35,210 bases of DNA from IMG/VR virus record IMGVR_UViG_2565956633_000004, positions 1 to 35,210 of that record. One strand, given 5' to 3'. This DNA comes from a virus (Duplodnaviria; Heunggongvirae; Uroviricota; Caudoviricetes). Positions 27,297-29,821 of the stretch are shown piece by piece. Position numbers and translations under genes: made by a program. Position 1 is the first letter of the stretch. The number at the start of each line of letters is the position of its first letter. The notes under the pieces were generated by a model. It had not been told where the DNA came from, made no database searches, and was given only the letters and a program-made list of their open reading frames with translations.

Positions 27297-27393
27297 ATAT
27301 CCTCCAAATATTGCGCGTTATGCATGTTATTTCACGCAAGTATTTTGCGCAAGTTGATTTGCTTATCACGCAATAAAGAAATGTAATAAACGC
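27297..27393. promoter_or_regulatory. Immunity-region operator/promoter block (divergent cI and cro promoters)
   Basis: Repeated CGCAA/TTGCG half-sites (ttgcgcg, cacgcaagtattttgcgcaag, cacgcaa) across the 97-bp intergenic region; cI ATG preceded by TAATAA close enough for a leaderless transcript. Confidence 0.6.
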
Positions 27394-28086
27394 ATGAACA
27401 TAGGAAAACGAGTCAGACAACTTCGCCAAGCGAAGAACATGAAAATCGCCGATCTCGCTGAAGCAATAGGAGTAGATGCGGCGAACATCTCGCGCTTAGA
27501 AACGGGTAAGCAGAAACAATTTACCGAACAAACACTGAGTAATATTGCCAAGAGCTTAGGTGTTGATATTGCTGATCTCTTTACCTCTGCCCTCAAAAGT
27601 AATACTGTATATAAAAACAGTAATGATGAGGATGTTGCGCAGGTGAAGGATGTGTTCCGTATTGAAATGTTGGATATCAGTGCCAGTGCGGGAAATGGCC
27701 TTATCCAGGGCGGTGATGTCATTGATGTGATTCATGCCATCGAATACAGAACTGATAATGCTGTATCAATGTTCGGCGGACGACCAGCCAATCACATCAA
27801 AGTTATCAACGTTCGTGGGGACAGTATGTGTCCAACCATTGAGCCAGGAGATCTCATCTTCGTTGATGTCAGCATCAATCAGTTTGATGGTGATGGTATA
27901 TATGTCTTTGGTTTTGATGACAAAATATACGTTAAAAGACTTCAAATGATTCCTGACAAACTGCTGGTGATTTCTGATAACCAGATTTACCGTGAATGGG
28001 GAATTACTAGCGAAAACGAACACCGATTCATGGTCTTTGGAAAGGTCTTAATCAGTCAGTCGCAAACCCTTAAGAGACATAATTAA
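27394..28086 (+). CDS. CI-type prophage repressor (HTH plus S24 LexA-like autopeptidase domain)
   Basis: 230 aa; N-terminal HTH (MKIADLAEAIGVDAANISRLETGK), C-terminal VRGDSMCPTIEPGDLIFVD...KIYVKRL S24 motifs. Confidence 0.9.
   Translation: MNIGKRVRQLRQAKNMKIADLAEAIGVDAANISRLETGKQKQFTEQTLSNIAKSLGVDIADLFTSALKSNTVYKNSNDEDVAQVKDVFRIEMLDISASAGNGLIQGGDVIDVIHAIEYRTDNAVSMFGGRPANHIKVINVRGDSMCPTIEPGDLIFVDVSINQFDGDGIYVFGFDDKIYVKRLQMIPDKLLVISDNQIYREWGITSENEHRFMVFGKVLISQSQTLKRHN
27603..27622. promoter_or_regulatory. Near-consensus LexA (SOS) box inside the cI coding sequence
   Basis: TACTGTATATAAAAACAGTA, a CTGT-N8-ACAG palindrome with TA flanks; differs from the E. coli consensus TACTGTATATATATACAGTA only in the central AT tract. 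Confidence 0.4.
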
Positions 28087-28103: not shown

Positions 28104-28128
28104 TCGGCCACCGAAAGGTGGCTTTTTA
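28104..28128 (+). terminator. Rho-independent terminator after cI
   Basis: GCCACC-GAAA-GGTGGC hairpin followed by TTTTTAT, 20 nt after the cI stop. Confidence 0.7.
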
Positions 28129-28140
28129 TCACCCATAATT

Positions 28141-28200
28141 TTGCACATCTCGCAAAATATTACTTGCGTATATCGCATTTTAATTTTATCTTTTGTTCCA
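28141..28200 (+). promoter_or_regulatory. Candidate early-left promoter/operator (pL/oL analog)
   Basis: TTGCAC ... CGCAAAATATTACTTGCGTATATCGCAT: the same CGCAA/TTGCG half-sites as in the cI-cro intergenic region. Confidence 0.45.
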
Positions 28201-28370
28201 GACCAACTACAGGATTACAACAAAATCTAGTTGCAACACGGTGCATGGTGCATGTGTCGTAAGCGGTCAGTAAATGTCAAAAACGAACAGTCAGGACGAC
28301 CACGAAGTAGCCGCCGGTGGCGTATGAATGACCGGATGATTCGTTAAATACTATGTGTAAGAGAGCGCAA

Positions 28371-28574
28371 ATGAACCGTTATTTCACATGCTCGTTTTGT
28401 GGCGCAAACGAGCTGCAGGCAAAAAAAATCATCGCCAAAGGCGGAAAAGATGAAGTTGCTATCTGCTCTGAGTGCGTAGTCTTGTGTGTAGGGGCATTAA
28501 TCAATATCAGCACAACTATTCAGTTCACACCAAATGAGAATGCGCCTTTAGATGCGCGGAAATCTGGAGGTTAA
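28371..28574 (+). CDS. Small ClpX N-terminal zinc-binding-domain-like protein (first early-left gene)
   Basis: MNRYFTCSFCGANELQAKKIIAKGGKDEVAICSECVVLC: CSFCG...K-I-A-G...ICxECVxLC parallels the ClpX C4 zinc-binding domain; no AAA+ module. Confidence 0.55.
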   Translation: MNRYFTCSFCGANELQAKKIIAKGGKDEVAICSECVVLCVGALINISTTIQFTPNENAPLDARKSGG

Positions 28575-28582
28575 AGAACAAA

Positions 28583-28858
28583 ATGAAAGTCCAGATTTTA
28601 AACAATAGTGGTGAAGTCGTTTGGTCATACGACATAGCCGCTCCTGTAGATCAGAGCGGCGATAGCTGGACCAATGGGAAACATCAGATTATGGCTGGAG
28701 TTGTATTCTCTTTACGCCGTGCTTTGGAACAGGCTGAAGTATTTCCATCAGACCCTGAATGGAAATGGCCTTTTTCTATTTGTCCAAATTCGGAGAGCAC
28801 ATTTCAGAAAATTGGTCAGAAAGTCGCACTCGAAGAGCATCAGCCAACTGTTTCCTGA
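28583..28858 (+). CDS. Hypothetical Trp-rich small protein
   Basis: 91-aa ORF 8 nt after the ClpX-ZBD-like stop; GGAGG upstream; 3' end overlaps a convergent ORF. Confidence 0.35.
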   Translation: MKVQILNNSGEVVWSYDIAAPVDQSGDSWTNGKHQIMAGVVFSLRRALEQAEVFPSDPEWKWPFSICPNSESTFQKIGQKVALEEHQPTVS

Positions 28859-29021
28859 TTTTTTCAGGTAACTCGTCGGCATCGCAGAAACAACAACGCT
28901 CGATCATGTTGAAAGCCGATTCGTAGAACTGTTTCTGCTGAGTGTCGCTGAGACAGGAAAAGAGCGACGTTACGATGATTTTATTAATTGCATTATCAAG
29001 TTCTTTTTCATCAAAAGTCAT
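28776..29021 (-). CDS. Hypothetical small protein, convergent to early-left operon
   Basis: 81-aa ORF with AAGGA RBS 9 nt upstream; AT-rich. Confidence 0.35.
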   Translation of the reverse strand: MTFDEKELDNAINKIIVTSLFSCLSDTQQKQFYESAFNMIERCCFCDADELPEKIRKQLADALRVRLSDQFSEMCSPNLDK

Positions 29022-29039
29022 TTGATTTTCCTTTTATGT

Positions 29040-29458
29040 ATACGGGCTTAAAAGGATACCACCGAGCCTGAAGTGGTGAAAAGACAGGCACATAACAGCT
29101 AAGTATTTTCAACCAGAGAGAATCCTTAGCGTTGTGGTGAATGCGGCTCAGCGCACGCGGGTTAAGGTTGAGGCTGACAGTCGACCTTCTGTGGATACCC
29201 ACCCGCCTGGTGTGCAACCTTCGCCAGGCACCGGGAGGCACCCGGCACCACAACTTTATGCTGTGTGTAGTCTTGGCGGTACCTGCTTGTACCCTTGCTT
29301 CCGGCTGGTACCGTCCTTTTTACAAAACAGAGAAGAGCATCACCGGACGACGGGCTCATAACCCAATCCATCCGGGCGGCAGTCACCGCAGGTGTTCTTC
29401 TCTGTTTTGTGGAGAAACTAACCGACCTTGCAGGGTCGATATGATGAGGAGCAGCAAA
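29040..29458. other. GC-rich, highly structured non-coding region (candidate ncRNA or regulatory leader)
   Basis: No credible ORF (overlapping frames give Arg/Cys-rich junk); nested dyads including a ~19-bp stem (29322-29344 pairing with 29391-29410) enclosing a 46-nt loop, CCGGG-AGGCA-CCCGG, two GGTACC-containing repeats. Confidence 0.4.
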
Positions 29459-29821
29459 ATGGCTAGCGAACGCAGTACTGATGTGCAGGCATTTATCGGG
29501 GAGCTGGACGGCGGCGTATTTGAAACCAAAATCGGCGCAGTTCTCAGTGAAGTCGCTTCCGGTGTGATGAACACGAAAACCAAAGGTAAGGTCTCGCTCA
29601 ACCTGGAAATCGAACCGTTTGATGAGAACCGAGTGAAAATCAAACACAAACTCTCATATGTTCGCCCGACTAACCGCGGGAAAATTTCCGAAGAAGACAC
29701 CACCGAAACGCCGATGTATGTCAATCGCGGTGGTCGCCTGACTATTCTGCAGGAAGACCAGGGACAGTTGCTGACTCTTGCCGGTGAACCTGACGGAAAA
29801 CTCCGCGCAGCAGGTCATTAA
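29459..29821 (+). CDS. YfdP-like protein (120 aa)
   Basis: Start re-assigned to ATG 29459 (GAGGAG 7 nt upstream); same length and position as CPS-53 yfdP. Confidence 0.55.
   Translation: MASERSTDVQAFIGELDGGVFETKIGAVLSEVASGVMNTKTKGKVSLNLEIEPFDENRVKIKHKLSYVRPTNRGKISEEDTTETPMYVNRGGRLTILQEDQGQLLTLAGEPDGKLRAAGH

Follow-up and report, generated by a model that had tools for sequence, protein, structure and literature searches.

The locus raises the question of whether two small open reading frames (ORFs) that converge and overlap at their 3' ends are both genes, and what such an arrangement might do. The window, which is the whole 35,210-nt stretch of DNA analyzed, belongs to an SfV/CPS-53/e14-like lambdoid prophage of E. 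coli, and the region concerned is its immunity and early-left part. The plus-strand ORF (28583..28858; ATG start, 91 aa) is a member of the SfV orf33 family (phrog_3195) and lies in the early-left operon. The minus-strand ORF (28776..29021; ATG start, 81 aa; phrog_3311) is antisense to that operon. Several features that an earlier note had read from the DNA were found as described: the two ORFs share an 83-nt stretch at their 3' ends (28776-28858), the plus ORF has a GGAGG ribosome-binding site at 28567-28571, 11 nt before its ATG, the minus ORF has AAGGA at 29033-29029 (minus strand), 7 nt before its ATG, and a ClpX zinc-binding-domain (ZBD)-like gene (28353..28574, plus strand; Pfam zf-C4_ClpX, E = 1.4e-10) lies upstream of the pair. 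The plus protein is Trp-rich, as had also been noted, and its four Trp residues (W14, W29, W60, and W62) are all invariant in a five-sequence alignment.

The ambiguity over which frame is real arises because annotators disagree. PGAP calls the minus ORF alone (WP_000141753.1), as does another phage record, and the SfV record calls the plus ORF alone (orf33). In metagenomic contigs, gene callers often pick an unconstrained 122-aa read-through of the plus ORF instead of the minus gene.

Coding status of the two frames

Protein searches gave homologues of the plus protein with 57-71% identity, those in Salmonella, Klebsiella, and Yersinia having 50-68%, and a profile search recovered homologues of the minus protein with 56-64% identity. 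Nine diverged versions of the module, from Escherichia, Salmonella, Klebsiella, and Yersinia, all have both frames open, at 63-77% nucleotide identity between clades. The distance from ATG to ATG is exactly 439 nt, with no indel, in all nine. The start codons and SD-like motifs of both ORFs, that of the plus gene included, are conserved in all relatives.

Selection on the frames was measured as pN/pS with Nei-Gojobori counts on five versions. In the part covered only by the plus ORF (28583-28775), the plus frame had a pN/pS of 0.34, and in the part covered only by the minus ORF (28859-29021), the minus frame had a pN/pS of 0.27; each value was the lowest of the six frames. Variable sites piled up at plus third positions in the former part (chi-square P = 4e-5) and at minus third positions in the latter (chi-square P = 1e-6). 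The peak of variability moved from the plus to the minus third position at ~28780-28795. This switch point coincides with the minus stop codons, which are located at 28776-28794 across the versions.

Both ORFs are almost certainly real genes. The earlier note had proposed a conservation analysis of both frames and had allowed that one of them might be spurious. When the analysis was run, both frames proved to be conserved at the protein level, and the suggestion of a spurious frame was contradicted by the selection acting on both and by their retention in diverged versions. It is very improbable that one frame is real and the other just an open antisense frame, as the annotations imply. Annotators did choose one frame or the other, and opposite the minus gene an open frame of 122-146 codons is common although not under selection, which shows that chance can produce long antisense frames here; however, the strongest constraint falls on each frame in its own exclusive part, third-position periodicity changes frame at the minus stop, starts and SD-like motifs are conserved for both ORFs, and members of each protein family could be traced down to about 30-50% identity.

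Within the overlap, a core of ~43 nt (28795..28837, both strands; plus residues ~72-85 and minus residues ~62-76) looks dual-coding. Third-position variability in this core was 0.20 for the plus frame, versus 0.40 in its single-coding part (P = 0.005), and 0.30 for the minus frame, versus 0.47 (P = 0.013). The motifs F.+.G+.VALEE in the plus frame and ALRERL in the minus frame are retained there. In most of the overlap, the minus frame dominates selection. The conserved core of the plus protein comprises residues 1-85, and its stop position shifts between versions, giving proteins of 91, 93, 122, and 146 aa with a pN/pS of 1.61 in the extension. This wandering of the stop indicates that the plus tail past approximately residue 85 is unconstrained read-through.

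Both proteins are acidic and hydrophilic, with GRAVY values of -0.38 and -0.40, and the pI of the minus protein is 4.56. The minus protein was predicted by AlphaFold2 to form a three-helix bundle (pLDDT 80.8), and a Foldseek search of PDB and BFVD with this model returned nothing below E = 1. The structure model of the plus protein was discarded (pLDDT 44). In searches of Pfam, NCBIfam, PADLOC, PDB sequences, and PHROGs, both proteins matched only their own unnamed PHROGs, and neither resembled SieB, RexAB, or any PADLOC defense model. A Cys motif (CC.C) was rejected as a zinc site, since distant homologues do not conserve it.

The early-left locus and its sas-like element

The order on the plus strand is an S24/HTH repressor gene, a terminator, a promoter-like site, a leader element, the ZBD gene, the plus ORF, and then yfdP, yfdQ, and yfdR. 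The cI-like S24/HTH repressor gene (27394-28086) was identified by a domain search, and the cI terminator was predicted at 28106-28123, shortly before the pL-like site. The putative pL-like promoter (28164..28192, plus strand; TTGCGT, 17 nt, TATCTT) was read by eye and is not among the matches of the consensus promoter scan. It is flanked by operator-like TTGC-N7-GCAA sites at 28141-28155 and 28164-28178, and a similar site is found in the cI/cro intergenic region (27359-27373). No terminator was predicted on the plus strand from 28133 to 29500 or on the minus strand left of the minus stop. This layout, from repressor through terminator and operator-flanked promoter to the plus-strand genes, indicates that the plus ORF belongs to a pL-type operon and that the minus ORF is antisense to it. 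The TTGC-N7-GCAA repeats on both sides of the repressor gene are candidate OL and OR operators.

The early-left leader element (28281..28344, 64 nt, plus strand) contains a CCGGT/ACCGG hairpin and shares 81-84% identity with its counterparts in Salmonella/Klebsiella relatives (L004, L006, and L010). It is better conserved than the neighboring genes. The element ends ~27 nt 5' of the plus ORF in L004 and L010 and ~108 nt upstream in L006, and it is found also 5' of e14 ymfJ and SfV orf33. Its hairpin covaries (CCGGT/ACCGG, CCTGG/CCAGG, and CCCGG/CCGGG), with compensatory changes in 3 of the 13 pairs of the fold, and a role as a nut- or put-like site is a possibility. The ZBD gene is inserted between the leader element and the plus ORF in the window only and is absent there in L004 and L010. 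A perfect 9-nt inverted repeat (28560-28568/28590-28598) spans the SD and start codon of the plus ORF. The ZBD gene ends with its stop codon at 28572-28574, and the repeat would suit translational coupling of the plus ORF to this gene. In Yersinia, a TTGACA-17-TACATT promoter lies directly 5' of the plus gene.

Between the gene pair and yfdP, a G+C-rich region on the plus strand (29101-29324) gave a full-model match to Rfam STnc100 (RF02076) with 43.5 bits, against a gathering score of 47 (E = 9e-8); across the whole window, no Rfam family reached its gathering score. The same region is a 'frameshifted hypothetical protein' in PGAP and ymfH in K-12 e14. A 226-aa ORF at 29141-29821 is an artifact in which this region is fused in frame to yfdP (29459-29821).

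The homology between relatives extends ~70 nt beyond the minus start codon, to roughly 29092. Hairpin 2 (29029..29056, both strands; TCCTTTTA / TAAAAGGA, inverted repeat I8) holds the SD of the minus gene in its 3' arm on the minus strand, and on the plus strand it is the first hairpin of a sas-like RNA. Its arms covary between cassettes (CCTTC/GAAGG, CCTTG/CAAGG, CTTGG/CCAAG, GCTGG/CCAGC, and TCTCG/CGAGA). The sas-like core (29058..29089, plus strand) is a near-invariant block, ACCACCGAGCCTGAAGTGGTGAAAAGACAGGC, which by its sequence probably forms an H-type pseudoknot on the pL strand. Stem S1 would pair 29058-29062 with 29073-29077 (ACCAC/GTGGT), and stem S2 would pair 29066-29070 with 29085-29089 (GCCTG/CAGGC), with an A-rich loop at 29078-29084. 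S2 appears to covary in Rac (GCCCGG/CCGGGC), in L009 (GAGCCTT/AAGGCTC), and in Yersinia (GCCGGG/CCCGGC). The helices were compared by script; in the MAFFT alignment (A6), hairpin 2 and stem 2 were out of register.

The sas-like element occurs once in the window, with 0 copies expected by chance. Its core matches the P22 sas RNA (sequence from PMC13397905) at 30 of 32 positions and is near-identical to the regions 5' of sieB in lambda, P22, and Rac. Collinearity with the P22 sas RNA extends over 29019-29092, from the start-codon CAT through hairpin 2 to ACCACCGAGCCTGA.GTGGT.AAAAGACAGGCAC. On the pL strand, the P22 sas RNA covers the complement of the sieB start codon and then both structures (PMC13397905), and it is an antisense RNA that switches SieB translation (PMC12197685, PMC7067206). 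Judged by base pairing, the element in the window would likewise be complementary to the translation start of its antisense gene.

Since the segment 5' of the minus ORF corresponds to the body of P22 sas, antisense control of the minus gene is supported by homology. We regard it as very likely that this is the sieB slot and that it carries a sas-like antisense element. The earlier note had pointed to the immunity/early junction as a slot for exclusion genes such as sieB, and this is borne out by the homology of the 5' region of the minus ORF to the sequence that precedes sieB in lambda, P22, and Rac. The note had also suspected antisense transcriptional interference; antisense control of the minus gene by early-left transcription agrees with the sas homology and is consistent with the lack of a predicted plus-strand terminator between 28133 and 29500. 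Two other explanations of the element were rejected: a minus-strand intrinsic terminator, as the T-run is not conserved in e14, and a purely minus-mRNA 5' leader, as the P22 sieB start site is annotated downstream of both hairpins. Folding energies gave a mixed strand preference for the hairpins. Window-type cassettes lack a 55-nt stretch of the leader that separates hairpin 2 from the ATG in P22 and in which the P22 annotation puts the promoter and start site of sieB.

The consensus scan found no minus-strand promoter 5' of the minus ORF, and its single match falls inside the ORF. A possible extended -10 element driving the minus gene, TGgTATCCT (29053..29061, minus strand), was seen in the sequence at the junction of S1 and hairpin 2; it is absent from the matches of the consensus scan. 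TAT-N2-T follows the stem in all short-leader cassettes examined, in a set of matches biased by the search pattern, and is missing in lambda, P22, and Rac, in which hairpin 2 lies ~55 nt farther from the ATG. The candidate element would start transcription inside hairpin 2, which is partly at odds with the covariation of this hairpin.

Co-inheritance and related cassettes

In the loci that were fetched via either protein, the partner protein was encoded in every one. Both genes were present, convergent, and overlapping in 12 of 12 versions, which comprise the nine described above and three distant ones (L148, L149, and L151). The overlap ranged from 74 to >231 nt, and the plus ORF ended before the minus stop in none of the 12. 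These adjacent genes of opposite orientation were always inherited together (12/12), as is typical of pairs of the Tai/Ati type, and the pairwise identities of the plus and minus proteins correlate (r = 0.87). The gene pair occurs behind different repressors and ahead of different early genes. The module was found in 886 of 5426 complete genomes, of which 408 hold at least 80% of it.

For the plus family, 17 cluster representatives came out of an exhaustive profile search, and the three distant versions were examined in context. In L148, a ClpX-ZBD-like N terminus (E = 7e-4) is fused to the plus domain in one 187-aa ORF (locus 101-664). This fusion suggests, as a reading of the sequence, that the adjacent ZBD gene of the window works with the plus protein. 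In L151, a MEFKDLP-type N-domain is fused to the plus domain, and L149 has a stand-alone plus form of 108 aa. All three have a convergent minus homologue that overlaps by 137-149 nt, and the pairing of the genes persists to roughly 30-40% protein identity.

Damaged copies were also seen. In some genomes, a recombination scar cuts the minus ORF after residue 67 and joins it to a phage tail gene (L014 2415-2702). In a HeN100-type cassette (L015 3001-3053), the first ~50 nt of the plus ORF are left before a different gene pair, and the weak plus ORF homologue of this cassette was rejected as such a remnant.

The main rival to a reading in which the two proteins act as effector and neutralizer is compaction without a functional link, in which an unrelated early plus gene and a lysogen moron, the minus gene, are bound by their overlap and the proteins do not interact. 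Physical overlap by itself would force co-inheritance, and compaction would also agree with the dominance of the minus frame in most of the overlap, with the unconstrained plus tail, and with the joining of the plus domain to different N-terminal domains. Lambda N and sieB are convergent neighbors as well, and no link between the two at the protein level is known to us. Compaction is nevertheless considered unlikely. Unrelated gene pairs behind a common control element are arranged in this way too, and the overlap stays intact down to about 30-40% protein identity. Moreover, a 43-nt constraint on two frames would be costly if a stop codon before the minus gene sufficed, and such a stop was never seen (0/12).

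The convergent overlap had been called unusual for an early operon in the earlier note, but this was wrong: it is the normal layout of the locus, in lambda, Rac, e14, and most other cassettes. When IMG/VR was scanned for exact matches to the S1 region, at least 119 loci were obtained, and the cargo was sampled from L025-L143 (IMG/VR), L013, L015, and L009 (5088-5112). The sas-like element, found in at least 10 different upstream contexts, is followed by at least 15 small ORFs (61-163 aa) that are unrelated to one another, e14 ymfI among them. For most of these cargo ORFs, a convergent pL-strand ORF overlaps the 3' end by 4-185 nt. Ten other cargo proteins had no significant match in Pfam or PADLOC and belonged to no known defense family there; one cargo family had a GhoS-like match below threshold (E = 0.0018). 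An N-terminal 'MEFKDLP...' or YmfJ-like module recurs in some of the partner ORFs, joined to different C termini. Some prophages (L011 4474-4500 and 5350-5385; L009 4475-4501 and 5088-5112; L016 2836-3326) have the element twice or two convergent pairs in a row, which looks like a tandem stacking of cassettes.

The sas-like element might act as a portable control module, the hallmark of a large and so far undescribed class of early-left two-gene cassettes in lambdoid prophages of enterobacteria, but we are doubtful of so broad a reading. We are just as hesitant about its second part, in which each cassette would consist of a lysogen-expressed antisense effector and an early-expressed cognate neutralizer. 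In such cassettes, the dual-coding 3' overlap would mean that recombination cannot part poison from antidote.

Known systems and the possible function of the pair

The sieB genes of lambda, P22, and Rac are likewise antisense to the pL operon, follow the repressor and pL, and converge with the pL-proximal gene; the position and orientation of the minus gene agree with the annotated lambda, Rac, and P22 records. However, the minus ORF neither encodes a SieB-family protein nor has an Esc-like in-frame internal start. SieB is membrane-bound and has ~190 residues, whereas the minus protein is a soluble, acidic, and unrelated protein of 81 residues. M39, its sole internal Met, was rejected as an Esc-like start, as no SD-like motif lies upstream and Leu takes its place in L148 and L149, two of the distant homologues. 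Lambda N and sieB abut and Rac ydaF and sieB overlap by 4 nt, whereas the window pair overlaps by 83 nt with a dual-coding core. What is new relative to sieB/sas is the unrelated cargo protein, the overlapping, dual-coded partner gene, and the shortened leader.

The ymfJ/ymfI pair of e14 (E. coli K-12) occupies the same slot, after the LexA-family repressor gene ymfK. The leader element and the sas-like element are common to e14 and the window, the flanks are partly identical, and ymfJ and ymfI converge with a 63-nt overlap. The window proteins were rejected as homologues of YmfJ and YmfI, as no sequence similarity was detectable. For ymfJ, the plus-strand partner, late SOS induction has been reported and the protein has been detected (PMC11002266). 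The pairs ymfI-ymfJ and sieB-ydaF have been catalogued from RNA-seq as convergent excludons, an excludon being a set of convergent genes whose transcripts necessarily overlap, which predicts mutually exclusive expression (PMC12288877). Excludons are defined by the overlap of transcripts, usually in untranslated regions, whereas in the window the coding sequences themselves overlap, as known from the DNA sequence alone.

A functional parallel is offered by TaiEcA/AtiEcA of phi80. An immune gene lies there in opposite orientation inside a lytic operon, beside a counter-defense gene; the lysogen-expressed gene is neutralized by its operon neighbor in the phage's own lytic cycle, and the two are co-inherited (PMC11364771). 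Tai/Ati is in a Q-controlled late operon, whereas the window pair is in the pL operon, and it is described there without a sas-like RNA or a coding overlap. The Tai/Ati proteins are unrelated to those of the window pair, and function has been demonstrated for Tai/Ati alone.

On balance, we lean towards reading the pair as a single mobile cassette of two genes that occupies the sieB slot of the pL operon, with a lysogen-expressed minus gene and an early plus partner. In the lysogen, pL would be repressed and the minus gene would be expressed from its own promoter. When pL fires, polymerases would meet the minus gene head-on, and the pL transcript would carry the sas-like hairpin and pseudoknot, which would be perfectly complementary to the minus translation start. 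This antisense sas-like RNA would then stop synthesis of the minus protein. The plus protein would be made via the pL operon only after induction or infection, as synthesis of the minus protein ceases. As the early partner, it would most likely be a counter-factor that spares the phage from the activity of the minus protein, comparable to Esc with SieB and Ati with Tai. This effector/neutralizer relation is put forward tentatively, by analogy. As neither protein matches a known family, defense model, or structure, the mechanism rests on the architecture of the locus and on two precedents, the sieB/esc/sas system of P22 and the Tai/Ati noncontiguous operon of phi80; from these we infer when each gene would be expressed, the antisense shut-off of the minus gene, and any activity in exclusion or counter-defense.

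A toxin-antitoxin-like addiction or abortive-infection module is improbable. In such a module, a toxic protein would be neutralized by the partner protein or by the antisense RNA, and the module would stabilize the prophage or kill infected cells. The small size, tight linkage, and mobility of the genes would fit, as would an antisense RNA complementary to the start of the minus gene and the GhoS-like match behind the element, although the latter is below the cutoff (E = 0.0018). SieB itself acts by aborting infection (PMC10883804). However, no toxin-antitoxin or PADLOC model was matched, and both proteins are acidic and soluble, neither being a short hydrophobic toxin of type I. The genes converge, unlike those of type II systems, with their co-directional operon and DNA-binding antitoxin, and truncated copies that lack the plus gene but keep most of the minus gene persist in genomes.

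For annotation, the conflict between the two frames is settled, and both genes merit annotation. Their overlap is a well-supported example of antisense dual coding retained in several genera, and such examples are seldom documented for bacteria and their phages. The findings connect the regulatory logic of sieB/sas, as described for P22, with hundreds of prophages in E. coli. If the pairs are effectors and neutralizers in the two-gene cassette that we favor, the locus would be a testable source of exclusion and counter-defense proteins, with the sas-like element as a search handle. If the reading of the element as a portable module were true, sieB/esc would be merely the first known example, and the ~15 or more unrelated cargo families would represent new systems of exclusion or abortive infection with self-immunity built in.
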